A stretch of DNA of 64,000 bases from Elusimicrobiota bacterium (GTDB lineage: Bacteria; Elusimicrobiota; Elusimicrobia; UBA1565; JACRDR01), in the NCBI GenBank assembly GCA_016194745.1, contig JACQBA010000013.1, forward strand, positions 256,822 through 320,821. The letters are read 5' to 3'. The notes beneath the pieces are model-generated. The model did no database searches, was not told where the DNA came from, and saw only the letters and a program-made list of their open reading frames with translations. Every line of letters starts with the position of its first letter. Within the stretch, counting starts at the first letter, position 1. Made by a program: the position numbers and the translations under genes. This document shows, piece by piece, positions 25,609 through 61,984 of the stretch.

Positions 25609-27072
25609 ATGATGTCGTCCATGGAAAATCCGAGCCATCCCTTCGCCTACCGCCTCCGCCGCGCCCTCAACTGGATCCCCCTCGGCCTCGCGTACGCCTT
25701 CTTCTACATGGGGCGCTACAACTTGACCGTCGCCAAGAGCGCCTTGGGAGACGCCCTGATGTCGAAGGCGGAGTTCGGCACGATCTTCGCGGTCGGCGCG
25801 TGGGCCTACGCCCTCTCCTTCGTCGCGACGGGCCCGCTGACGGACCGGCTCGGCGGCCGCCGCGCGATGCTCGTCGGCACGGCCGGGACCATCGCGGTCA
25901 ACACGCTCATGGGCCTCGCGCTCTACGGCATCACGCAGTGGCATTGGCCGCTCTCCATCTTCTGGACGTTCACGGGCCTCTACGCGCTCAACATGCACTT
26001 CCAGAGCTACGGCGCGGCGGCCATCGTCACGGTGAAGGCTCCGTGGTTCCACGTCCGCGAACGCGGCACGTTCTCCACGATCTTCGGCGCGATGATCACG
26101 CTGGGCATCTACTTCGCCTTCGACTGGGGCTTCGCCATCGTCTCGGCGACGCGCGCCAAGGCGCCCAAGGACCTCGGCTTCTGGGGCGGCGCGTTCAAGT
26201 CCATCCTCGGCACGGGCGGCGCGGCCGTCGACCAGAACTGGTGGCTCTTCTTCACGCCGGCGATCCTCATGTCCGCCTGCTGGATCGCCATGTACGCCTA
26301 CATGCGCGACACCCCCAGCCAAGCCGGCTTCGCGGACTTCGACACCGGAGAGGAATCGGTCTCGGGCGACGGGCAACGCCTGCCGATCCGCCAGGTGTTC
26401 CTTAAAATCGTCACCCACCCCGTCCTCATGGTCGTCTGCGGGATCGAGTTCTGCAGCGGCATTCTCCGCAACGGCATCATGCACTGGTACCCGCTCTTCG
26501 CGGCCGAAGTCGGCTTCAAGAAGACGTTCGTCATCACCCAGAATTGGGGGCTCATGCTCCTCATCGCCGGCCTCGGGGGCTCGTTCCTCACCGGCTGGGC
26601 GTCCGACAAGTTCTTCCAGTCCCGCCGCGGGCCGATGGCCTCGATGCTCTACGCGCTGATGATCGCCTCGGTGGGCGTCATGGCCTTCACGCTCAGCGGC
26701 AACGTCTGGTTCGCGGGCGCGGCGACCTTCCTCATCTCCCTGTCGGTCATCGGCGTGCACAGCATTCTCTCCGGCACCTCGACCGCGGACTTCGGCGGCG
26801 CCAAGAACGCTGGCGCGGCCGTCGGCATCGTGGACGGGATGGTCTATCTCGGGACCGGCATCCAGTCGGTCGCGATCGGCTCCCTCGCCCCGGTCGGCGA
26901 GGCGGCGAAGAACCCGAACAACTGGTTCTGGTGGCCCGTCTTCCTCGCGCCGTTCGCGGTCGTCGGCTTCGGCCTCTGCCTCAAGATCTGGAACGCCGCG
27001 CCGAAGATGAAGGCCGCGCGCGCCACGCCGGCGCCCGCGCCGGAGCCGCTGGCCGAGCCCGTCGCCGCGTAA
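25609..27072 (+). CDS. MFS transporter (organophosphate:Pi antiporter-like, GlpT/UhpT-type)
   Basis: 12 predicted TM segments with MFS signature regions. Similarity to sugar-phosphate antiporters. Confidence 0.8.
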   Translation: MMSSMENPSHPFAYRLRRALNWIPLGLAYAFFYMGRYNLTVAKSALGDALMSKAEFGTIFAVGAWAYALSFVATGPLTDRLGGRRAMLVGTAGTIAVNTLMGLALYGITQWHWPLSIFWTFTGLYALNMHFQSYGAAAIVTVKAPWFHVRERGTFSTIFGAMITLGIYFAFDWGFAIVSATRAKAPKDLGFWGGAFKSILGTGGAAVDQNWWLFFTPAILMSACWIAMYAYMRDTPSQAGFADFDTGEESVSGDGQRLPIRQVFLKIVTHPVLMVVCGIEFCSGILRNGIMHWYPLFAAEVGFKKTFVITQNWGLMLLIAGLGGSFLTGWASDKFFQSRRGPMASMLYALMIASVGVMAFTLSGNVWFAGAATFLISLSVIGVHSILSGTSTADFGGAKNAGAAVGIVDGMVYLGTGIQSVAIGSLAPVGEAAKNPNNWFWWPVFLAPFAVVGFGLCLKIWNAAPKMKAARATPAPAPEPLAEPVAA

Positions 27073-51793: not shown

Positions 51794-54100
51794 ATGATCA
51801 GGTTCCCCGCATTGATCGCCGCAGTCGTCGTCGCCGCCTCTCCCCTGGCCGCGACCCCTCCCATGGACGAGCTCCGCGACGCGCCGGCGGCGAAGCCGGC
51901 GCCCGCGGCGGCGGTCATCCGGATCCCCCGACGCCCGACTACGCAGCGCCCCGCGGTGCTCGATCGCCGGATCGAATCCAAGATCGAGCAGCTGCTCAAG
52001 CGCATGACGCTCGAGGAGAAGCTCGGCCAGCTCCAGCAGCTGGGCGACGACGGCAAGGGCGGCCACATCGAGGCCGCCAAGAAAGGCCGCCTCGGCTCGA
52101 CCCTCAGCATCTCCGGAGCGGCCAAGCTCAACGAGATTCAGCGGGCGAATATGGAGCATTCGCGGCTCAAGATCCCGGTCCTTTTCGCCCACGACGTGAT
52201 CCACGGCTTCCGGACGATCTTCCCGATCCCACTCGGCGAAGCTGCGATGTGGGATCCGGAGGCGGCGGAGAAAGCGTCCGCCGTCGCGGCCGCCGAGGCC
52301 GGCGCGGCCGGCTTGCGCTGGACGTTCGCCCCGATGGTGGACATCGCGAGAGATCCCCGCTGGGGGCGCATCGCCGAAGGCGCCGGCGAGGATCCTTACC
52401 TCGGGGCGGCGATGGCGCGGGCCCGCGTCCGGGGCTTCCAAGGGAGCGATCCTTCGGCTCCGGACAAGCTCCTCGCGTGCGCCAAGCATTGGATCGGCTA
52501 CGGCGCCGCCGAAGGCGGACGGGACTACAACTCCACCGACATGTCCCTACGCACGATGCGAGAGATCTATTTCCCTCCTTTTAAAGCCGCGGTCGACGCG
52601 GGCGTCGCGACGTTCATGAGCGCGTTCAACGACCTCAACGGCGTCCCGTCGAGCGGCAACGCCTTCACGCTCACGCAGGTCCTCCGCGGCGAGTGGGGGT
52701 TCACGGGCTTCGTCGTCAGCGACTATGAATCGGTACGCGAGCTGATCCCGCACGGCTTCGCGAAGGACGCGGCCGACGCGGCGCGGCTGGGGCTCGCGTC
52801 CGGCGTCGACATGGAGATGGTCAGCCGCACGTACGCCGAGAACGCGCCCAAGCTCCTCGAGAAGGGCCTCCTGTCCCAGGCGGCCATCGACGAATCCGTG
52901 CGGCGCGTGCTGCGCCAGAAGTTCCGCGCGGGCGTCTTTGAGCGCCCCTACGCCGACGAGGCGGCCGAAAAGACCGCCTTCCTCAAGCCGGAGTACGTGC
53001 GTCTGGCGCGCGAGAACGCGGCCCGCTCCTTCGTCCTCCTGAAGAACGAGAAGGGCCTGCTGCCGCTCGAGGGTCCCGGCCGCACGATCGCGGTGATCGG
53101 CCCGCTCGCGGACGACGCGAGCGCGATGCTCGGAACGTGGGCCGGCGAAGGCAAGAAGGAAGACGCGGTCACGATCCTGCAGGGACTCAAGTCCGAGGCT
53201 CCCGCGGGGACGAAGATTCGCCACGCCAGGGGCTGCGACGCGGACTGCAAGACGACCGACGGGTTCGCGGCGGCCGTCGACGCCGCGAGGAATGCCGACG
53301 TGGTCGTCGCCGTGGTCGGCGAGACCGGAGACATGAACGGCGAAGCGGCGTCGCGGAGCACGCTGGACCTGCCCGGACGGCAGCTCGAGCTCGTCCAGGC
53401 CCTCCACGCGACCGGCAAGCCCGTCGTCGCGGTGCTCGTCAACGGCCGGCCCCTGACGATCGGCTGGCTCGCGGAGAACGTGCCCGCCATCCTCGAGACG
53501 TGGCACGCGGGAGTGCAGGCGGGGCCCGCGGTCGCCGATGCGCTGTTCGGCCGCGTCACTCCCGGCGGAAAGCTGCCGGTCACTTTCCCGCGCACGGTCG
53601 GGCAGGTGCCGATCTACTACAACCAGAAGACGACCGGGCGGCCGCCGACGATGGACGACTGGGTCAAGGAGCGCTACGTCTCGCGCTATCAGGATTTGCC
53701 GCTCGGCCCTCTCTACGAGTTCGGCTTCGGCCTGAGCTACACCACCTTCCGCCTTTCCGACTTCGCGCTCAGCGCGACGTCCATCAAGCCCGACGGGCGC
53801 ATCACCGCGAAGGTCGCGGTCGAGAACACCGGCGCGCGCGACGGAGACGAGGTCGTGCAGCTCTATATCCGCCGGCCCTCCGCGAGCGTCACGCGGCCCG
53901 TGCGCGAGCTCAAGGGCTTCAAGCGCGTCTCGCTCAAGCCGGGCGAGACGCGCGAGGTCGCCTTCGACCTCGGCCCCGCGGACCTGGGCTTCCTCGGCCC
54001 AAACCTCGAGTTCGGCGTCGAGCCGGGGATCGTCGAAGCATACGCCGGCACGAGCTCGTCGGGCGGGCTGAAGGCGTTCTTCGAGATCGTCGCACGGTGA
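51794..54100 (+). CDS. Periplasmic beta-glucosidase, glycoside hydrolase family 3 (BglX-like)
   Basis: Signal peptide. GH3 N-domain (LEEKLGQLQQ, KIPVLFAHDVIHGF) with catalytic Asp region (GFVVSDYE). GH3 C-domain and Fn3-like tail. Confidence 0.9.
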   Translation: MIRFPALIAAVVVAASPLAATPPMDELRDAPAAKPAPAAAVIRIPRRPTTQRPAVLDRRIESKIEQLLKRMTLEEKLGQLQQLGDDGKGGHIEAAKKGRLGSTLSISGAAKLNEIQRANMEHSRLKIPVLFAHDVIHGFRTIFPIPLGEAAMWDPEAAEKASAVAAAEAGAAGLRWTFAPMVDIARDPRWGRIAEGAGEDPYLGAAMARARVRGFQGSDPSAPDKLLACAKHWIGYGAAEGGRDYNSTDMSLRTMREIYFPPFKAAVDAGVATFMSAFNDLNGVPSSGNAFTLTQVLRGEWGFTGFVVSDYESVRELIPHGFAKDAADAARLGLASGVDMEMVSRTYAENAPKLLEKGLLSQAAIDESVRRVLRQKFRAGVFERPYADEAAEKTAFLKPEYVRLARENAARSFVLLKNEKGLLPLEGPGRTIAVIGPLADDASAMLGTWAGEGKKEDAVTILQGLKSEAPAGTKIRHARGCDADCKTTDGFAAAVDAARNADVVVAVVGETGDMNGEAASRSTLDLPGRQLELVQALHATGKPVVAVLVNGRPLTIGWLAENVPAILETWHAGVQAGPAVADALFGRVTPGGKLPVTFPRTVGQVPIYYNQKTTGRPPTMDDWVKERYVSRYQDLPLGPLYEFGFGLSYTTFRLSDFALSATSIKPDGRITAKVAVENTGARDGDEVVQLYIRRPSASVTRPVRELKGFKRVSLKPGETREVAFDLGPADLGFLGPNLEFGVEPGIVEAYAGTSSSGGLKAFFEIVAR

Positions 54101-54264: not shown

Positions 54265-56187
54265 ATGATTGCAGGGGGGATTGCGCGCATGAGAAAACTC
54301 GCTTCGTTCGTCGCCGCCGCATGTCTCGTACTGTCGAGCGCCCCGCCAGGCGCTGCGCAGCGCGCGCCCATCGAGACCCGAGCGCCGTCGACCTCCGGAG
54401 CGATCCCCGTCGTCTTCCAGCCCGCGGCCGCGTCCCTTTCGCTGAGTCTCTGGGGCTCCGGCCTCGAGGCGACCACGTCGCTGCCGCTCGACGCGGGCGG
54501 GCTCGCCGCGGCTCCCGCCGCGCCTCTCGGCGCGCTCTCGCTGTCCCCGGCCTTTCCGCCGTCCCTGACGTCGTCCCTCGCTTCGGCTCCCGCCGCGCCT
54601 CTCGGCGCTCCCGTCGCCGCGCTGCGCTCCCAGGCTCCGGCGCCCCACGCGGGGCCCTCGCTCGATGCGCTGCCGGCTCTCGGCTCCCTCGAGCGCGCGG
54701 TCGCGCCCTCGGGCGGCTCCTCCGGCGTAGCGTCGCGGTCGCCGGAGTCCGGCCTCGCGGCGCCATCGGAGTTCTTCGACGAAGCGGCGGTTCGCGGCAA
54801 GACGCTGCTCCTGGTCGGCACGCGCGCGTCCCGAGAGTTCATCCTGAACGAGACGGTCCGCGTTTCGAAGAAGCTCGGCCTGAACCTGGTGCTGCTCGAT
54901 CGTCCCGAGGACCGCGCGCATTCGGCGCCGCATGTCCCGGAGGCCAATTTCATTCCCGCCCCGATCGACGACCGCACCGCCCCGACGATCGCCTCCAACG
55001 CGGCAAGGGTCGTGGACTTCGCGAGGAATTCCGCGGTCGACGCCGTGATCTCCTTCAGGAGCCACCATGCGAAGCTCACGGGTGAGATCGTCGACCGGCT
55101 GCGCGCGCGCGGGGTGGCCAAGCGCGCCGTGGTGACCGCCGATACCAAGCCCCTCATGCGCGAGGCGGTCAACGCCAAGGTGCCCGAACAAAGCGTGCCG
55201 TTCCGAAGGATCACGAGCGTTGAGGAAGCTCGTCGCGCCTACGCCGAGCTCGGCGGAGGGAAATTCATCCTCAAGACCGTTCAAGGCGAGAACAGCCGCT
55301 TCCTCGCGACCGGCCTCGATTCCGCCGAGGCGGTCGCCGCCGCCTACCGGCGCATGGACAAGGCCGTCAGCGCCTTCGCCAAGCAGCACCGCGAGACCTC
55401 GAGCATCTTCAACCGGCATCCGGGGATATTCATGGAGCGCGAACTCGAACCGGTCCCCGGCACCAACGAAGTGTCCGTGGAGGTCGTGATGCAGCGCGGC
55501 AAGGCCGCCATCGCCGTCGTCTCCGACACCCTCAAGATCGGCAAGAAGGACGAGCTGGCCGGCGCGAGCATGACGTTCCCCTCGCAGCTCGGCCGGGACA
55601 TGCAGAAGGCTTTCGTCGCGGCGGCCGAGAAGGCCCTGAACGCCGTCGGAATCCTGGAAGGCAACGCGCGCATCGACATGATGATGACCAAGGACGGAGC
55701 GCGCGTCATCGAGATCAACCCCTACCTAGGAGGCTCGGCGGTGCACACCGCGGTGCTGCTCCAGACGGGCGTCAGCCTCATCGAGCAGGGCATCCGCGCC
55801 ATCCTCGGGCTCAAGGTCGAGCCCATCGGAGAGCCGCTGGTCGTCGTGGATTACCGCTTCGCGGCGTCGGCGGCCGACGGCACGCTCGAGGCCGTCGGGG
55901 GATTCGACGACGCCCGCGGGTCTCCCGGCGTCCAGCACCTCCAGATGCTCAACGAGATCGGCGACTCGGTGACCGCGCCCGTCGACAACGGCTACGAGGA
56001 AAACTCGGAAATCATGGCCGTGGGCAAGGACTTCCCGGAGGCGCGAGGCAGGAACGTGAAGGCCCTCGGCAAGCTCAGGCTGTACATCCGAAAGGCGGAC
56101 GGCACTCTCCTCGAGCAGAAAGCGGATTACCTGCAGCCCGGCGGCTCCGACTCGACGAAGGCCGTCTCGGGAATCCCCGGGCGCTGA
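54265..56187 (+). CDS. ATP-grasp domain protein with signal peptide and low-complexity Ala/Pro/Ser-rich N-terminal region
   Basis: Signal-peptide-like MRKLASFVAAACLVLSSAPPGAAQ (alternative start 54289). About 150 aa low-complexity. Then an ATP-grasp fold with VIEINPYLGGS. Confidence 0.65.
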   Translation: MIAGGIARMRKLASFVAAACLVLSSAPPGAAQRAPIETRAPSTSGAIPVVFQPAAASLSLSLWGSGLEATTSLPLDAGGLAAAPAAPLGALSLSPAFPPSLTSSLASAPAAPLGAPVAALRSQAPAPHAGPSLDALPALGSLERAVAPSGGSSGVASRSPESGLAAPSEFFDEAAVRGKTLLLVGTRASREFILNETVRVSKKLGLNLVLLDRPEDRAHSAPHVPEANFIPAPIDDRTAPTIASNAARVVDFARNSAVDAVISFRSHHAKLTGEIVDRLRARGVAKRAVVTADTKPLMREAVNAKVPEQSVPFRRITSVEEARRAYAELGGGKFILKTVQGENSRFLATGLDSAEAVAAAYRRMDKAVSAFAKQHRETSSIFNRHPGIFMERELEPVPGTNEVSVEVVMQRGKAAIAVVSDTLKIGKKDELAGASMTFPSQLGRDMQKAFVAAAEKALNAVGILEGNARIDMMMTKDGARVIEINPYLGGSAVHTAVLLQTGVSLIEQGIRAILGLKVEPIGEPLVVVDYRFAASAADGTLEAVGGFDDARGSPGVQHLQMLNEIGDSVTAPVDNGYEENSEIMAVGKDFPEARGRNVKALGKLRLYIRKADGTLLEQKADYLQPGGSDSTKAVSGIPGR

Positions 56188-58239
56188 TTACTTCTTGAGG
56201 GAGGCGGGCGGCGCCCCGCCGCGAAGGTTCTTGGCGAGCCGAAGGTATCCGTACGCCATCGCGGTCGCGCCCGCGCCGACGAGCCAGAACGCGCCCGTAC
56301 CGAAGAGCTGGAAGAGGGCGCCCCATAGAAAGAAGCTGATCGCGTACGAGGAATAGGTCAGCGTGCGCTCGGCCCCGATGATGCTCGCGGCCTTGTCCTC
56401 CGGCATCTGGTCCGACATCATCGAATCCAGGTGCGTCAGCGCCACCTGCGCCGTAAGCCCGATGAGCAGGAGCGCCGGAGTGACCCAATAGACGGGCCAC
56501 GTGATGATCGTGAACAGGTACGCTTGGTTCACGAACGCCCAGGCGCCCAGGAGAGCCGCCGCGGAGAATTTGAGGGACAGCTCGGCTCCCCGTACCAGCA
56601 TCTCCTCCTGCTTAGCGGCCTTGGCCGCCTTTTCCAGAGTCTCCGTGCGCTTTGAGATATGGCGCGCCACTGCGAACATGACGAACGCCGCGGCGATCGC
56701 TCCGATGCCGTAGACGCCCGTGAGCGCCGAGGACACGAGCGCGGCCTTCTGGAGCACGCCGGCCGCGGCGAACACGCCGAACGCCGTCGCGGTGATGTAG
56801 TAGAGAGTGTAGAAGAAGTTGTTAATCATCACCTTGCCGACGAAGTACCGCCGCAGGGACGGGCTGCCGAACAACCCGTCGAAGCCCTCGCGGAAGGACG
56901 TCTTCTCCAGGGCGCTCGCCGAAGGGCCCGGCAACCGCACGAAGAAGGCGATAAGCGCCGCCACGGCGAAGAACACCGGCGCCGCGTAGACGACGGAACC
57001 GAATCCGAAGACGACGATCAGCCAGCCGGCGCCCAGCGTCGAGAACACCGTCCCGTACTCCACGAAGTCCCGGATCGTCCCGAAGTAGGTGTTCTGCACC
57101 TTGTTCCCCTTGAACCACGCGACGCGGAGCGTCTGCTCGGCGACGCGGTTGACCGAGTGGACGAGGATATCGGCGATGAACAGGGCGGCGAGCGCCATGA
57201 TCGGGATCGTCTGCGAGACGGGGTCGAACAGGAAGGCGACCGCCGTCCAGATGCCGGTGCGCGCGATCAATCCGGTCCGGTAGATGCCCCCGACGCCGAA
57301 GCGCTTGACGAGCGGGCCGCCGACGAAGGCGCCGATCGCGTAGGCGACGTAGCTCGCGGCCGCGATGGAGCCGACGATCAAGAACCCGTACGGCGCCAGC
57401 GGGTTGGCAAGCTGCGGGATGACGAGGCCGATCGATTCGACGGCGACTTGGATGAGGATGAAGCTGGAGAAAAAGCTGAGGACGTTCGTCGTGAACACCG
57501 AGCGCGGCTTGACGGGGCCGTCGTCTCCCTGTGTCCCCGTCGCGGGCAGCGCGGCGCGCGCGACTTGTGGCGATTCGGCCTGCGGGGCGGCCCCTGCGAC
57601 GGGCGCAAGGCCGCCGCCGGCCGCCGCGCGGCCTTCGGCCGAAGTGCCCGGCGTCTCCGGCGCGGCGTCCTTGGAGCGGATGCCGTGATAGAGATCGGAG
57701 AGGACGCGAGAGCCCGCCAGGCCCGAAGGGTCCGCGCCGAGCGCCTTCGACGCGCTCGCCCCGGTCGAGGACAAGGCCGCCGCGGCTCCTCCGCCCCATC
57801 GCTCCAGACCCGCGTCCGCGGGCGCAGCGCCGGCCGGCGGCGGCGCCAGTCTCGCGGGCAGCGCGGCGGCCGCGGCGGCCGCTCCCGTCTGCATGGACGC
57901 GGCGCTCGGCGACGCCGCGCCCCCGAGGCGTCGGACCGGAGAGGAAAGCTCGAGCGAACCGAAGGCTCCCGCCGGCGAGGCGGGAGACAGCGACAAGACC
58001 GCCGCCTCCGAAAGCCCGAGTCCGGGCGCGGCCAAGCCGAGACCCGTAGGACCGAACGAGAAGGCATCGAAGCCGACGAGACTTCCAGCGGCGAATGAGG
58101 TTAAGGAAAAGCCCTTTGACGAATTGGCCGGGGCGACCTCTACCGCGACCGGGCGCACCTGCGTCCACCCCGTACCCGGCGCGGCGCCGATCGAGATCGC
58201 CACGACGGCCGCCAGCCAACGCTTGCCTTTCGCCATCAT
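56188..58239 (-). CDS. MFS transporter with a ~250-aa low-complexity Ala/Gly/Ser/Pro-rich N-terminal extension
   Basis: Signal-peptide-like start MMAKGKRWLAAVVAISIGAAPGTG. About 12 TM in the C-terminal ~430 aa. Convergent and abutting the ATP-grasp gene. Confidence 0.7.
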   Translation of the reverse strand: MMAKGKRWLAAVVAISIGAAPGTGWTQVRPVAVEVAPANSSKGFSLTSFAAGSLVGFDAFSFGPTGLGLAAPGLGLSEAAVLSLSPASPAGAFGSLELSSPVRRLGGAASPSAASMQTGAAAAAAALPARLAPPPAGAAPADAGLERWGGGAAAALSSTGASASKALGADPSGLAGSRVLSDLYHGIRSKDAAPETPGTSAEGRAAAGGGLAPVAGAAPQAESPQVARAALPATGTQGDDGPVKPRSVFTTNVLSFFSSFILIQVAVESIGLVIPQLANPLAPYGFLIVGSIAAASYVAYAIGAFVGGPLVKRFGVGGIYRTGLIARTGIWTAVAFLFDPVSQTIPIMALAALFIADILVHSVNRVAEQTLRVAWFKGNKVQNTYFGTIRDFVEYGTVFSTLGAGWLIVVFGFGSVVYAAPVFFAVAALIAFFVRLPGPSASALEKTSFREGFDGLFGSPSLRRYFVGKVMINNFFYTLYYITATAFGVFAAAGVLQKAALVSSALTGVYGIGAIAAAFVMFAVARHISKRTETLEKAAKAAKQEEMLVRGAELSLKFSAAALLGAWAFVNQAYLFTIITWPVYWVTPALLLIGLTAQVALTHLDSMMSDQMPEDKAASIIGAERTLTYSSYAISFFLWGALFQLFGTGAFWLVGAGATAMAYGYLRLAKNLRGGAPPASLKK

Positions 58240-58417: not shown

Positions 58418-59923
58418 ATGTTCCTCGTCTGGCTCGCCGCGTGCGCGCTGGCGGCCTTGTTCGTCCACGATCGCTGGTTCTCCGGAGACAACATCCTCCG
58501 GAACTTTCCAGTGCTCGGCCGATTTCGCTATTTCCTGATCGAGATCGGCCCGGAGCTGCGCCAATACATCGTCGCGGGAAATCACGAGGAGCTTCCGTTC
58601 AACCGCGAGGAGCGCGATTGGATCTACCGTACCGCCCGCGGCGAGAACAACTACTTCGGCTTCGGGACGGACGACCAGCTCTACAACATCGGCTACCCGG
58701 TCATCAAACACGCGGTCTTCCCCCATGGCGAGGTCGGATTTACGGCCTCGATCCACGACAAGCTCCACGAAGTGCCCTGCGCGAAGACGCTCGGCGAGAT
58801 CCGGGACCGCGCGAAGGCCTGGCGCCCGCGCTCCATCGTCAACATCTCGGCGATGTCGTTCGGCGCACTGGGGGCGCACGCGGTCGAGGCGCTCAACCGC
58901 GGCGCCAAGACGGCGGGCTGCTACCACAACACCGGGGAAGGCGGCATCTCGCCGCACCACAAGCACGGCGCCGACGTCATCTACCAGATCGGGACCGGGT
59001 ACTTCGGATGCCGAAATTTGGACGGGGGCTTCTCCATGGACAAACTCCTCGAGACCCTGGGCGGCTGCCCCCAGGTGCGGGGCATCGAGATCAAATTGTC
59101 TCAAGGAGCCAAACCCGGAAAGGGCGGCGTACTGCCCGGAGCGAAGGTGACCGAGGAGATCGCCGGCATCCGCGGCGTGCGCGCCGGCACGGACTGCGTG
59201 AGCCCGAACAACCACGGCGCTTTCCGGGATATCCGGGGCATGATCGCCTTCATCGAGGAGATCGCGGCGGCGACCGGGCTGCCGGTGGGCATCAAATCGG
59301 CAGTGGGGCACACCGGATTCTGGCGGGAGTTGGCGGCCGCCATGCGGGAGGGAGGAAAGGGCCCGGACTGGATCACGATCGACGGCGGAGAGGGCGGCAC
59401 CGGCGCGGCGCCGCTGACCTTCGCCGATCACGTGTCGCTTCCGTTTCGCGTCGCTTTCCCCCGCGTCTACAAGGAGTTCCTCGATGCGGGCGCCGCCGAC
59501 AGGACCGTTTGGATCGCGAGCGCCAAGCTGGGCTTTCCCGATCGCGCCATCGTGGCGTTCTGCCTGGGCGCCGACCTGATCAACATTGCCCGCGAGGCGA
59601 TGCTGTCCATCGGCTGCATCCAAGCCCAGAAATGCCACACGGACTTGTGCCCCAGCGGCGTCGCCACGCACAGCGCCTACCTGCAGCGGGGCCTGGCCCC
59701 CGAGGTCCAGTCCCAGCGGTTCGCGCGCTTCTGCCAGTCCTTCCGCAACGAGCTTCTCGCCGTGACGCACGCCTGCGGCTACGAACACCCGTCTCAATTC
59801 ACCGCCGAGGACGTCGAGGTCAGCGCAGGCCCCGGCCAGTTCAAATCCCTCCGAGAACTGTACGGCTACACGCCCGGCCGGACCTGGTCCGGGATTGCGG
59901 GCTGGGGCGTGTCAGCCGCCTGA
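58418..59923 (+). CDS. FMN-binding glutamate synthase family protein (GltB domain-2-like)
   Basis: N-terminal TM. Conserved glutamate-synthase central-domain blocks (IKLSQGAKPGKGGVLPG, GGEGGTGAAP, DLINIAR...C...C). Confidence 0.85.
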   Translation: MFLVWLAACALAALFVHDRWFSGDNILRNFPVLGRFRYFLIEIGPELRQYIVAGNHEELPFNREERDWIYRTARGENNYFGFGTDDQLYNIGYPVIKHAVFPHGEVGFTASIHDKLHEVPCAKTLGEIRDRAKAWRPRSIVNISAMSFGALGAHAVEALNRGAKTAGCYHNTGEGGISPHHKHGADVIYQIGTGYFGCRNLDGGFSMDKLLETLGGCPQVRGIEIKLSQGAKPGKGGVLPGAKVTEEIAGIRGVRAGTDCVSPNNHGAFRDIRGMIAFIEEIAAATGLPVGIKSAVGHTGFWRELAAAMREGGKGPDWITIDGGEGGTGAAPLTFADHVSLPFRVAFPRVYKEFLDAGAADRTVWIASAKLGFPDRAIVAFCLGADLINIAREAMLSIGCIQAQKCHTDLCPSGVATHSAYLQRGLAPEVQSQRFARFCQSFRNELLAVTHACGYEHPSQFTAEDVEVSAGPGQFKSLRELYGYTPGRTWSGIAGWGVSAA

Positions 59924-60019
59924 CACCGCTGACAATCCCGGTCTTGACTTCCGAGACTATTCCACGTATATACATGTCGAGACGGCATGCAGTGAAGTTG
60001 ACGGGAATTTTTCCTTTCT

Positions 60020-60385
60020 TTGACCATGGCGAAAGTGCTAATTATTGATGATTCTCGCCTCACCCGGGCGATGATCAAGAATATGCTGAAAAGTCTGGGA
60101 CACGAGATCGTCGGCGAGGCCGAGGATGTCCCTCAAGCGCTTGATTTCTTCAAATCCCTCTCGCCGGAGGCCGTGACGCTCGATATGGTCCTTCCGAGCG
60201 GCTCGGGCCTGGATATCCTGCGCGCGATCCGCGCTCAGAACGCGACGACGCGCGTCATCGTCGTCACTGCCAGCGGCCAGGACGGCATCGACCGCCAAGT
60301 GATGGAGCTAGGCGCCAACGCCGTCATGCACAAGCCGTTCACGCCCGACGAATTTAAATCCACCATACACAAGACTTTGGCTTGA
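60020..60385 (+). CDS. Single-domain response regulator (CheY-like)
   Basis: VLIIDDS ... LDMVLP ... KP receiver motifs, 121 aa, no output domain. Confidence 0.85.
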   Translation: MTMAKVLIIDDSRLTRAMIKNMLKSLGHEIVGEAEDVPQALDFFKSLSPEAVTLDMVLPSGSGLDILRAIRAQNATTRVIVVTASGQDGIDRQVMELGANAVMHKPFTPDEFKSTIHKTLA

Positions 60386-61014
60386 TGAGCCTGCCCCCCC
60401 CGGAATCCCTCACTAAGCATGAGCAGGACTATTTTCAAAAGCTCATCGAAGCGAGCGTCGAAACGAGCATGCAGTCGATGGCCAAGCTCACGCAGCGAGA
60501 TTGGTCCATCACGTCCGTCGGCCTGACCGACGGCCATACGCAGGACTTTCTAAAGATCTTCGAGAGCCAGCAAGGAGTTCATTCCGGCGTCCAGCTCTGG
60601 TCGAAGGGATCGTACCCGCTCCTGTTCCTCCTCCTATTCTCGCCGAAGAGTTCCGCGGCCCTGACGGCGGCGTTGAGCAGCATCTATCAGCTCGAGTTGA
60701 GCGAGGCAGCTTTGTCGCGGAAGCTCGTCCTTGAGGAAGTGGGCAACATCATCATCAGCTCCTTCTTGAAGCGGCTGGCGAATACGCTCAAGCAGACGAT
60801 CCTGACGACGACGCCCGCCTATCTCGAGGGAAGCAAGAAAGAGCTGCTCACCGCCACGATGGCTTCCCTGGGCGGACGAAAGGGAACGGGCGAGCACGCC
60901 GTAATGGTGCACATCGGCATGTCGTCCGCGAGCCTTTCCGCGGACTGCGATTTGATGATTCTGGCCGATCCGGCCTGTCTAAGACAGCTGGTGATGGAGT
61001 GCAGCGGACAATAG
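60382..61014 (+). CDS. CheC-like CheY-P phosphatase
   Basis: 210 aa. The second half aligns with B. subtilis CheC (LEEVGNIIISSFLKRLANTLKQTILTTTP vs ELGNILAGSYLTALADLTKLQLYPSVP; GEHAVMVHIGM vs GEHAIVVDTSI). ATGA overlap with the CheY-like gene. Confidence 0.65.
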   Translation: MMSLPPPESLTKHEQDYFQKLIEASVETSMQSMAKLTQRDWSITSVGLTDGHTQDFLKIFESQQGVHSGVQLWSKGSYPLLFLLLFSPKSSAALTAALSSIYQLELSEAALSRKLVLEEVGNIIISSFLKRLANTLKQTILTTTPAYLEGSKKELLTATMASLGGRKGTGEHAVMVHIGMSSASLSADCDLMILADPACLRQLVMECSGQ

Positions 61015-61018
61015 GAGG

Positions 61019-61984
61019 ATGCGAATGTTGAAGAAGATCGCCGTGTTGGTCGCAGCCGCATTGTTTACTGGTGGACTTCGCGCGCCCGCGTACGCCTGGG
61101 AGCCCGGGGATACGGTTGAGCTCGTGGTGCCTGCCGCCAAAGGCGGCGCCGACGCGATGATCCGCGCGATCGCGGACATCATCGAAAAGAACAAGCTGAC
61201 CAAGCAGAAAATCGTCGTGGTCAACAAGCCGGGCGGCTCCGGAGCCGAGGGATACCTCTACATCAAGGGCAAGCCTGGAAGCGACACCTTGGTGATCACG
61301 CTCTCGAACATCTTCACGCTGCCCGTCACGATGGGCACGAACTTCAAGTGGGACGAACTCACGCCCCTGGCGCGCATGGCCCTCGACCCGTTCATACTGT
61401 GGGTCAATGCGGACACGCCGTACAAGAAAGCGGACGACTATCTCGCGGCGGCGCGCGCCGAGTCCGGCAAGTACAAGATGGGAGGCACCGGGGCCGCGCA
61501 GGAGGACCAGATCGTGACGGGCCTTCTCGAACAGTCCTCCAAAGCGAAGTTCGTTTACGTCCCCCTCAAAGGCGGCGGGGACGTCGCGAAGGCGCTCGCG
61601 GCGAAGGAGATCGACTCTTCGGTCAACAACCCGTCCGAGGCCGAGGCGCTTTGGAAGGAAGGCAAGGTGAGGCCTCTTGGTTTGTTTTCCTCCAGCCGTA
61701 TGACGCTTCCTGCCTGGAAAGACGTCCCGACGATGAAGGAGCAGGGGCACAACGTCGAGTACGTGATGATGCGCGGCATCTTCGGCCCTCCCGACATGAA
61801 GCCGGAAGCGGTGAAGTACTACACGGCCCTTCTTCAAAAGGTCGCCAAGACGAAGGAGTTTCAGGACTACCTGATCAAAAACGGCCTTCTGAACGCCTAC
61901 ATCGCCGATAAGGAGTTCAGGACGTGGGTCGCGGAACAGGACGACATGCACCGCAAACTCCTGGGGACCCTGGGCCTAAAGTAA
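61019..61984 (+). CDS. Tripartite tricarboxylate transporter substrate-binding protein (TctC/Bug family)
   Basis: Signal peptide. Bug-family fold, about 320 aa (ELVVPAAKGGADAMIRAIADI ... KPGGSGAEGY). Confidence 0.8.
   Translation: MRMLKKIAVLVAAALFTGGLRAPAYAWEPGDTVELVVPAAKGGADAMIRAIADIIEKNKLTKQKIVVVNKPGGSGAEGYLYIKGKPGSDTLVITLSNIFTLPVTMGTNFKWDELTPLARMALDPFILWVNADTPYKKADDYLAAARAESGKYKMGGTGAAQEDQIVTGLLEQSSKAKFVYVPLKGGGDVAKALAAKEIDSSVNNPSEAEALWKEGKVRPLGLFSSSRMTLPAWKDVPTMKEQGHNVEYVMMRGIFGPPDMKPEAVKYYTALLQKVAKTKEFQDYLIKNGLLNAYIADKEFRTWVAEQDDMHRKLLGTLGLK

Follow-up and report, generated by a model that had tools for sequence, protein, structure and literature searches.

Can an ATP-grasp ligase be a secreted protein? 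ATP-grasp chemistry needs ATP, and the ligases that use it normally lie on the cytoplasmic side of the membrane. The question is raised by two genes in a stretch of 64,000 nucleotides of an Elusimicrobiota bacterium (contig JACQBA010000013.1), referred to here as the window, where a ligase with a signal-peptide-like N-terminus abuts a transporter of the major facilitator superfamily (MFS). An initial annotation, made from the letters alone, took the ligase to be secreted. The best explanation we can offer, at a probability of roughly 0.55, is that the pair is the split form of an Elusimicrobia module, in which a membrane-tethered cytoplasmic ligase of the L-amino-acid-ligase (Lal) type would hand an amide-linked product to a dedicated MFS transporter. 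The genes and their folded cores are as follows.

54289..56187, + strand: ATP-grasp ligase gene (632 aa from M9; the longest open reading frame (ORF) starts at 54265 and has 640 aa)
54769..56184, + strand: ATP-grasp catalytic core of the Lal type (Pfam, AlphaFold2 (AF2), Foldseek, phmmer against PDB)
55663..55737, + strand: metal/ATP-site motifs NARID (R461, D463) and VIEINPYLGGS (E475, N477) (homologue alignment)
55855-56088, + strand: LAL_C2 domain (Pfam)
56188..58239, - strand: MFS transporter gene (683 aa)
56191..57501, - strand: MFS core of 12 transmembrane (TM) segments (Pfam, AF2, positive-inside rule)
57277-57321, - strand: motif-A-like loop between TM2 and TM3, GGPLVKRFGVGGIYR, read in the MFS core

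Fusion and co-occurrence of ligase and transporter

Among 67 ligase homologues, 49 were longer than 900 aa, most of them with both LAL_C2 and MFS_1. Most homologues are single chains of ~1000-1060 aa that run from a signal-like head through an Ala/Pro/Ser linker, the ATP-grasp domain (LAL_C2) and a short linker into MFS_1. Since the window ligase matched the ATP-grasp half of one such fusion (P0016) at 49% identity and the window MFS core (aa 248-676) matched its MFS half at 41% identity (E 6e-88), the module is present in the window in unfused form. When one genome per species was scanned, 29 loci emerged, 28 of them with enough flanking DNA; all were metagenome-assembled genomes (MAGs) with Elusimicrobia or Elusimicrobiota in the title, apart from one "bacterium" and one Candidatus Endomicrobium. 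MFS of this subfamily was present in all 28 loci with enough flank (28/28), fused or within about 6 kb, and in 23 of the 28 it followed the ligase directly and in frame. A convergent adjacent pair, as in the window, was seen in L008 (185-nt gap) and L017 (66-nt gap); the MFS gene lay ~5 kb from the ligase in L009 and L010, and in L004 the two genes were co-directional with a 4-nt overlap. Split-system ligases and MFS proteins were each closest to other split-system counterparts, and the two halves track each other in similarity.

The MFS core was also searched with HMMER, exhaustively over 1.84 billion representative proteins. Only 44 relatives were found, and almost every full-length one had 150-255 residues before the core. 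This core-only search replaced one with the full-length MFS against a 5.8-billion-protein set, which gave the self match only, low-complexity words dominating; a word-indexed core-only search with the ligase gave fewer matches than the full-length search, and no outgroup. Two of the relatives (P0085 and P0093) showed the reverse order of fusion, with head, linker and MFS followed by a Lal-type ATP-grasp 27% identical to the window ligase. In P0094 and P0095 the MFS was followed by a GNAT-like tail directly past TM12, homologous to the tail past the ATP-grasp in P0085; the GNAT-like assignments are weak (E 3e-4 to 7e-3). Two further MFS relatives (L005:14632-16734 and P0071) carried, in the TM9-TM10 loop, an insertion of ~60 aa that adds two hydrophobic helices.

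Fusion in two orders, strict co-occurrence and the mutual closeness of the split-system proteins strongly support a functional coupling of ligase and MFS, which appears about as secure as comparative genomics allows. The initial annotation had suggested a ligase and exporter for an amide-linked product and had proposed co-occurrence in other genomes as a check; the check came out in favour of the pairing (28/28 loci, two fusion orders), while the product and the export direction are predictions, weighed below. As far as these searches reach, the module is restricted to one phylum, the Elusimicrobia. Because distant ligase-free MFS relatives already carry the extension, we infer an ancestral split state and a later N-terminal fusion. 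The MFS extension was also considered as the remnant of a deleted ATP-grasp; this found no support, as the distant ligase-free relatives have both the extension and its helix motif VWxHAxxRGF.

In the window the two ORFs were found convergent and abutting, as initially annotated: the ligase TGA occupies 56185-56187 and the MFS TAA is read as TTA at 56188-56190 (gap 0 nt). A search between the convergent genes revealed no terminator and no convincing promoter. With abutting stops and no terminator, the transcripts must enter each other's coding regions.

Signal-like heads and the side of the membrane

Both proteins begin with a signal-like head followed by a long region of low complexity, as listed here.

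54289..54360, + strand: signal-peptide-like N-terminus of the ligase, MRKLASFVAAACLVLSSAPPGAA, then Q (sequence reading)
54361..54768, + strand: disordered Ala/Ser/Pro/Leu/Gly linker of the ligase (136 aa; 5 K+R, 6 D+E)
54499-54516, + strand: GLAAAP in the ligase linker
54535-54564, + strand: LSLSPAFPPS in the ligase linker
57502..58158, - strand: disordered Ala/Gly/Ser/Pro/Leu extension of the MFS (aa 28-246)
57670..57711, - strand: SRVLSDLYHGIRSK, a degenerate version of VWxHAxxRGF, the helix motif that the N-extensions of the MFS subfamily conserve
57967-57996, - strand: LSLSPASPAG in the MFS extension
58021-58038, - strand: GLAAPG in the MFS extension
58159..58239, - strand: signal-peptide-like N-terminus of the MFS, MMAKGKRWLAAVVAISIGAAPGTGWT, then Q (sequence reading)

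The heads were judged by rule of thumb (n-region charge, h-region, small residues at -3/-1), and on this reading both have the layout of a Sec signal peptide for signal peptidase I, with a positive n-region, a hydrophobic h-region and small residues at -3/-1. The ligase head, laid out as MRK-LASFVAAACLVLSS-APPGAA and then Q, has an n-region of +2, an apolar stretch of ~20 aa, a small-x-small site and an Arg straight after the Gln. The MFS head, MMAKGKR-WLAAVVAISIGAA-PGTGWT and then Q, has an n-region of +3 and an Arg two residues past the Gln, and it aligns with APWPAWAQTAR of the fused clade. An equivalent of the ligase head was found in nearly all homologues, and across species the fused clade keeps the n-region MKxRALRSA and the c-region APWPAW[AGS]Q-T-A-R. 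AF2 modelled a helix only at residues 4-13 of the ligase head, with low confidence, and at residues 2-19 of the MFS head, with a predicted local distance difference test score (pLDDT) of ~65.

The ligase linker consists of A24 S17 P15 L14 G10 %, and the 217-aa low-complexity region of the MFS, with very few charges, of A25 G15 S12 P10 L10 %. At pLDDT below 50 for ligase residues 13-156 and MFS residues 19-244, AF2 predicts both extensions to be disordered; the degenerate VWxHAxxRGF copy was modelled as a low-confidence helix (171-185). Throughout the MFS subfamily the extension comprises a signal-like head, a low-charge linker of 100-150 aa, the VWxHAxxRGF helix motif and a Pro/Ala/Lys-rich stretch leading to TM1. 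The signal-peptide-like N-terminus of the ligase and the long Ala/Pro/Ser/Leu- or Ala/Gly/Ser/Pro-rich extensions of the initial annotation are thus borne out by sequence and by AF2.

The extensions might be artefacts of annotation, untranslated and open simply because stops are rare at 67-79% GC, with the real starts near the folded domains. The region is indeed very GC-rich (0.74-0.79), and in the MFS a GTG stands in frame right at TM1 (codon 248). However, between codons 2 and 200 the ligase ORF offers no ATG, GTG or TTG in frame, so that the ligase cannot be made without its extension. In addition, the third-codon-position GC content (GC3) remains at 0.7-0.9 and its periodicity continues through both N-terminal regions; the heads, MKxRALRSA and VWxHAxxRGF are kept in frame down to ~25-30% core identity; and the head-linker-core layout recurs in nearly all full-length homologues inspected. 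An artefact is extremely unlikely on these grounds, and the extensions are best read as genuine translated parts of both proteins. Local GC content peaks over the linker-coding regions (0.79 at 57500-58000 and 0.74 at 54500-55000, against ~0.65-0.70 around) on account of their Ala/Gly/Pro codons. The ligase most likely starts at M9 (54289) and not at 54265; an SD-like (Shine-Dalgarno) GGGGGG lies 9 nt upstream of the ATG at 54289, with nothing similar before 54265, and the 632-aa NCBI record of an identical protein (P0001, "ATP-grasp domain-containing protein" of an Elusimicrobia MAG) starts there too.

The initial annotation had further claimed that the two extensions share short motifs (LSLSPAFPPS with LSLSPASPAG, GLAAAP with GLAAPG) as part of a common N-terminal module. 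The motifs turned out to be at chance level. In composition-matched shuffles the common exact 6-mer LSLSPA had P=0.10 and the ungapped 7-of-10 match P=0.5, and composition-adjusted BLASTP of the ligase extension against that of the MFS found no similarity. Composition-matched random expectation, named beforehand as the refuting test, is not exceeded by the quoted motif sharing. A collinear gapped Smith-Waterman alignment of the extensions scored 111 as compared to 72.5 ± 9.8 in global shuffles (P~0.001) and to 80 against the reversed sequence, but with local composition preserved the excess was only marginal, P being 0.01-0.03 for the whole extension and 0.03-0.08 for the linker alone. Ligase/MFS extension pairs from the same genome gave z of 2.4-5.2 and cross-genome pairs ~2; the slightly higher same-genome scores are weak evidence of shared constraints. 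What appears to be common to both proteins, and family-wide, is the architecture of head plus linker, not specific motifs; in this form the idea of a common module holds for both protein classes.

Such long linkers are not general in the window's exported proteins, and other signal-peptide proteins do without them. An ordinary-looking MFS ORF at window 25609-27072, as read from sequence, has no N-terminal extension, so the long extension is specific to the ligase-associated MFS subfamily and no genome-wide habit.

The side of the membrane was judged from the MFS core. Pfam MFS_1 (PF07690) scored 60.1 bits against a cutoff of 33.4 (E 2e-16), covering profile positions 3-345 of 347, and AF2 gave a confident 12-helix core that matched many MFS structures in Foldseek, importers and exporters alike. 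No match to the core was found by phmmer against PDB, and the Foldseek matches were generic, with none informative on subfamily. Topology here rests on hydropathy and the positive-inside rule. Lys+Arg in loops cytoplasmic by homology as compared to the others numbered 30:1 in the window MFS, 33:0 in fusion P0016 and 1093:64 across 38 family members. As Lys+Arg concentrate in these loops, the core is clearly predicted to be N-in/C-in, with TM1 starting from the cytoplasm. The end of the MFS extension and the whole ATP-grasp of the fusions are then cytoplasmic, since they lie directly upstream of the N-in TM1.

A hidden stop-transfer segment or TM-grade helix was sought by hydropathy in the linkers and none was found; the second peaks had a median Kyte-Doolittle value over 19 residues (KD19) of 1.1-1.4 and were Pro-rich and variable in position. 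A type-I topology after signal cleavage was rejected, the linkers holding only these weak peaks. With a cytoplasmic flank of TM1 and linkers devoid of TM-grade segments, neither the MFS nor the fused ligases can, as judged from sequence, have a conventional cleaved signal peptide; the chain that follows the head, which a Sec signal peptide would send across the membrane, is predicted to stay on the cytoplasmic side in the MFS and the fused orthologues. The description of the ATP-grasp as secreted is not supported, the ATP-grasp of the fused orthologues being placed in the cytoplasm (33:0 in P0016, 1093:64 in the family) with no TM segment between it and the head. The alternative that the initial annotation had itself allowed, a cytoplasmic disordered region after a misread signal peptide, is the better-supported half of its proposal. 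For the stand-alone ligase of the window we likewise infer a cytoplasmic location. The head could be seated peripherally, or be re-entrant as in PglC, or act as an atypical anchor.

We also weighed a truly exported ligase, in which the signal peptide of the split systems is cleaved and the ATP-grasp works in the periplasm or at the cell surface, nucleotide or activated substrate coming through the MFS. The textbook n-h-c N-terminus with its small-x-small site speaks for this, as does the stand-alone ligase having no other hydrophobic segment; the adjoining exported glycoside hydrolase of family 3 (GH3) likewise has a signal peptide and a short Ala/Pro linker, and in P0085 and P0093 the internal ATP-grasp is still directly preceded by a signal-like segment. 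However, no ATP pool is known in the bacterial periplasm, the ATP-grasp of the fused orthologues must be cytoplasmic, the same type of head stands on the MFS, whose topology leaves no room for a conventional signal peptide, and in P0094 and P0095 the GNAT-like tail is cytoplasmic because it directly follows TM12, at the cytoplasmic MFS C-terminus. We regard an exported ligase as very unlikely. The internal hydrophobic segment of the reverse fusions (residues 789-807 in P0085, 802-820 in P0093) lies between MFS and ATP-grasp and is preceded by a conserved stretch of ~90 aa, 53% identical between the two. Since P0085 has the segment before an internal ATP-grasp, where it has no N-terminal signal role, it travels with the enzyme module.

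A related observation concerns L036:4619-11265, where three consecutive genes on the same strand each start with a signal-like head and an Ala/Pro/Ser linker. They encode a divergent Lal-type ATP-grasp (P0113), a 1046-aa fusion of a Lal-like ATP-grasp with 12 TM segments, and a 560-aa protein with a weak GNAT match (Acetyltransf_6). It seems that head plus linker are the mark of a whole group of enzymes that are cytoplasmic as a rule. That the head should be an export signal in the split systems, with the ligase and, in relatives such as L036, the GNAT-like enzymes extracytoplasmic and energy or activated substrate supplied via the MFS, is very unlikely.

Probable chemistry and direction of transport

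The ligase matched LAL_C2, ATP-grasp_3 and ATP-grasp_4 in Pfam. LAL_C2 (PF18603) scored 33.8 bits against a cutoff of 29.4 (E 4e-8) and ATP-grasp_3 scored 26.0 against 23.2, and NCBIfam gave weak partial matches only, to a fused ATP-grasp/argininosuccinate-lyase model, BacD and D-Ala-D-Ala ligases. The AF2 model of the core (residues 160-630), made with family alignments, had pLDDT mostly above 90 and a three-domain ATP-grasp fold. Its best structural matches in Foldseek were BL00235 (3vot), BacD/YwfE (3vmm, 3wnz) and RizA (4wd3); the match to 3vot_B (BL00235) had E 7e-25 and a TM-score of 0.81, and over the range from 1e-25 to 1e-18 the Lal enzymes were followed by biotin carboxylases, PurT and PurD. 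In phmmer against PDB, 3vot was matched at 5e-5 and BacD at 4e-4. By model and sequence alike, the core is placed closest to the L-amino-acid ligases BL00235, BacD and RizA. The motif VIEINPYLGGS is encoded at 55705-55737, and the initial reading of a canonical ATP-grasp with IEINPYLGGS thus agrees with Pfam and with the AF2/Foldseek fold.

K329, R461, D463, E475 and N477 were invariant in 63 homologues, and the ATP/Mg site is predicted to be intact for this reason. The arginine that BL00235 has four residues past its Mg-binding Glu (EVGARIGG) is Tyr in the window ligase (EINPYLGG) and Phe or Tyr clade-wide; P0113, P0085 and P0093 keep the Arg after E-x-N/G, as in BL00235. The Arg in E-x-x-x-R may be a defining trait of the Lal family. 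Its part may be taken in the window clade by R461, which is invariant and lies two residues ahead of D463, and the catalytic Arg of the window clade appears to have moved into a D-Ala-D-Ala-ligase-like arrangement within a Lal-like fold. The arrangement R-x-D...E-x-N is presumably that of D-Ala-D-Ala ligase, a likeness treated here as a lead only. The enzyme is thus a putative ATP-dependent amide-bond ligase of the Lal type, for which synthesis of alpha-dipeptides from unprotected L-amino acids is a prediction only.

In the mechanism that we favour, the ligase at the cytoplasmic face of the inner membrane would activate a carboxylate, most likely of an amino acid, as an acyl-phosphate and would then join this to an amine, giving an amide-linked small molecule (dipeptide-like being the default for the fold). 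The MFS would move the product out of the cell or, less likely, bring substrate in. The hydrophobic head with its long disordered linker would tether the proteins flexibly to the membrane or serve as a handle for assembly, and would have no part in export. A tethered enzyme at the cytoplasmic face is the most economical reading because it fits both the topology evidence and the requirement for ATP, and export is favoured as the direction because of pairings of the bacD/bacE type.

Transport could run the other way, the MFS importing an amino acid, an amine or a small peptide that the tethered cytoplasmic ligase ligates at once, making the uptake irreversible. The fusion and co-occurrence data are silent on direction, the structural neighbours of the MFS core include importers as well as exporters, and LplT-Aas provides a precedent of an MFS coupled to a cytoplasmic enzyme that modifies the incoming substrate. 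However, known Lal clusters pair the ligase with an efflux MFS, bacD/bacE being an example, and no catabolic or downstream genes are conserved beside the pair. Import with immediate ligation is accordingly the less probable direction, and we hold it to be unlikely.

Another alternative places the chemistry in the envelope. The ligase would attach an amino acid, at the inner leaflet, to a membrane-bound lipid or a lipid-linked precursor, and the MFS would flip the modified molecule to the outside, as MprF or LtaA do. A hydrophobic head and tether holding the enzyme at the membrane surface would suit this, MFS proteins of this subfamily are joined to GNAT-like domains in relatives (Acetyltransf_1 in P0094, and P0085; Acetyltransf_6 in L036), and the R-x-D...E-x-N site is like that of cell-wall ATP-grasps such as Ddl, to which weak matches were seen. 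Against it, the global fold and LAL_C2 indicate soluble amino-acid substrates, no lipid- or cell-wall-synthesis genes are conserved nearby, and the GNAT matches are of the low significance given above. Precursor flipping is therefore quite improbable in our judgement.

Apart from the two genes themselves, no neighbour was conserved beside the pair across the loci compared, and the module appears self-contained for that reason. The GH3 gene, which lies directly upstream of the ligase (window 51794-54100), encodes an enzyme of beta-glucosidase type with Glyco_hydro_3 N and C domains and an Fn3-like domain; its signal peptide leads into ~45 aa of Ala/Pro-rich linker, much shorter than the linkers of ligase and MFS. 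Divergent from the MFS gene, window 58418-61984 holds a 501-aa protein with a Glu_synthase domain (PF01645) and a hydrophobic N-terminus, followed by genes for a CheY-like receiver, a CheC-like protein and a TctC-family receptor. L001 carries an identical block, which is absent beside the pair in other genomes. In the fused clade, a carbon-nitrogen hydrolase with a signal peptide (PF00795, 1.4e-6) is divergently adjacent to the fusion at L026:6645-7472 and at 10 other loci, and might work outside the cytoplasm as an amidase on the exported product. Synteny of this CN_hydrolase, along with a small secreted protein and a Lon-like protease, is confined to the fused subclade, and all three are absent from the window and from the other split loci.

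Several points weigh against the reading of a tethered cytoplasmic ligase with its own exporter. The N-termini resemble textbook Sec signal peptides, the fused clade keeping MKxRALRSA, the apolar stretch and the site between AWA and Q, and nothing in the sequence of the stand-alone ligase forbids export. The positive N-flank of the head argues against a simple N-out anchor. Topology was deduced from hydropathy and the positive-inside rule, and the substrate and its class, the product, the transport direction and the tether role are proposals. Without the Arg after E-x-N, the chemistry of the window clade may differ from that of the classical Lal enzymes; and as no neighbour is conserved, the context gives no clue to a pathway.

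Significance and comparison with known systems

A Lal-type ligase with an MFS partner is known; unusual here are the covalent fusion in two orders, the restriction to one phylum within the reach of these searches, and the conserved N-terminal module, which mimics a signal peptide but could not work as one in most family members. In the literature we found no account of ATP-grasp-MFS fusions, of the extended MFS subfamily, or of bacterial secreted or signal-headed ATP-grasp ligases; the one predicted secreted ATP-grasp is the eukaryotic C7orf58 (PMC2824669). The two-order fusions present a clean case of a biosynthetic ligase wired to its own transporter, a two-component "make-and-move" unit, in a phylum of which hardly any member is in culture and whose biochemistry has seen few experiments, and the module offers a testable path to a new amide or dipeptide metabolite or envelope modification of Elusimicrobia. 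Dozens of proteins carry signal-like N-termini that cannot act as such on the MFS and the fusions, and "secretome" predictions made genome-wide for these lineages would misfile them. A head followed by 100-250 aa of uncharged disordered linker at the membrane is also a question for membrane-protein topogenesis. The extracytoplasmic reading, if true, would mean an ATP-grasp system outside the cytoplasmic membrane, supplied through a dedicated MFS.

The closest known systems are the Lal enzymes that have an MFS efflux partner in clusters for dipeptide antibiotics, namely BacD/YwfE of bacilysin with its partner BacE, and also BL00235 and RizA, which share the ATP-grasp fold with LAL_C2 and gave the best structural and sequence matches. 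BacD/YwfE is genetically paired with the MFS efflux protein BacE in the bacilysin cluster, much as the ligase is paired here. However, the window ligase is only 13-18% identical to the Lal enzymes, it has a signal-like head and a linker of ~140 aa, most of its relatives are fused to MFS, and its catalytic Arg would sit in the R-x-D motif and not after E-x-N. Unlike bacilysin-type clusters, the Elusimicrobia pair comes without other biosynthetic genes, and the window MFS falls in a separate small subfamily marked by its N-extension.

LplT-Aas, a lysophospholipid transporter with an acyltransferase/acyl-ACP synthetase, is a system in which an MFS adjoins or is fused with a cytoplasmic ATP-using enzyme acting on the transported molecule, and such fusions work. 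The enzyme family and the substrate are different there, LplT has no signal-like head or disordered extension, and no homology of the window MFS to LplT-like systems beyond the MFS fold was detected by phmmer against PDB or by Foldseek. MprF, an aminoacyl-phosphatidylglycerol synthase joined to a flippase, couples the addition of amino acids at the cytoplasmic face to outward transfer of the product by its membrane domain; the likeness is conceptual, as MprF works with aminoacyl-tRNA, its flippase is not an MFS protein, it lacks an ATP-grasp and it is non-homologous.

For the heads, the comparison is with the re-entrant N-terminal helix of PglC, which has a positive N-flank, a proline break and the look of a signal anchor and yet leaves the catalytic domain in the cytoplasm (PMC6133551). 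In PglC the helix abuts the catalytic domain and the proline lies mid-stretch, whereas in the window pair and its relatives 110-220 aa of disordered linker intervene and the prolines (APWPAW or APPGAA) end the apolar stretch. A monotopic, PglC-like insertion of the heads may serve as an analogy for how a signal-like N-terminus could stay with a cytoplasmic enzyme.

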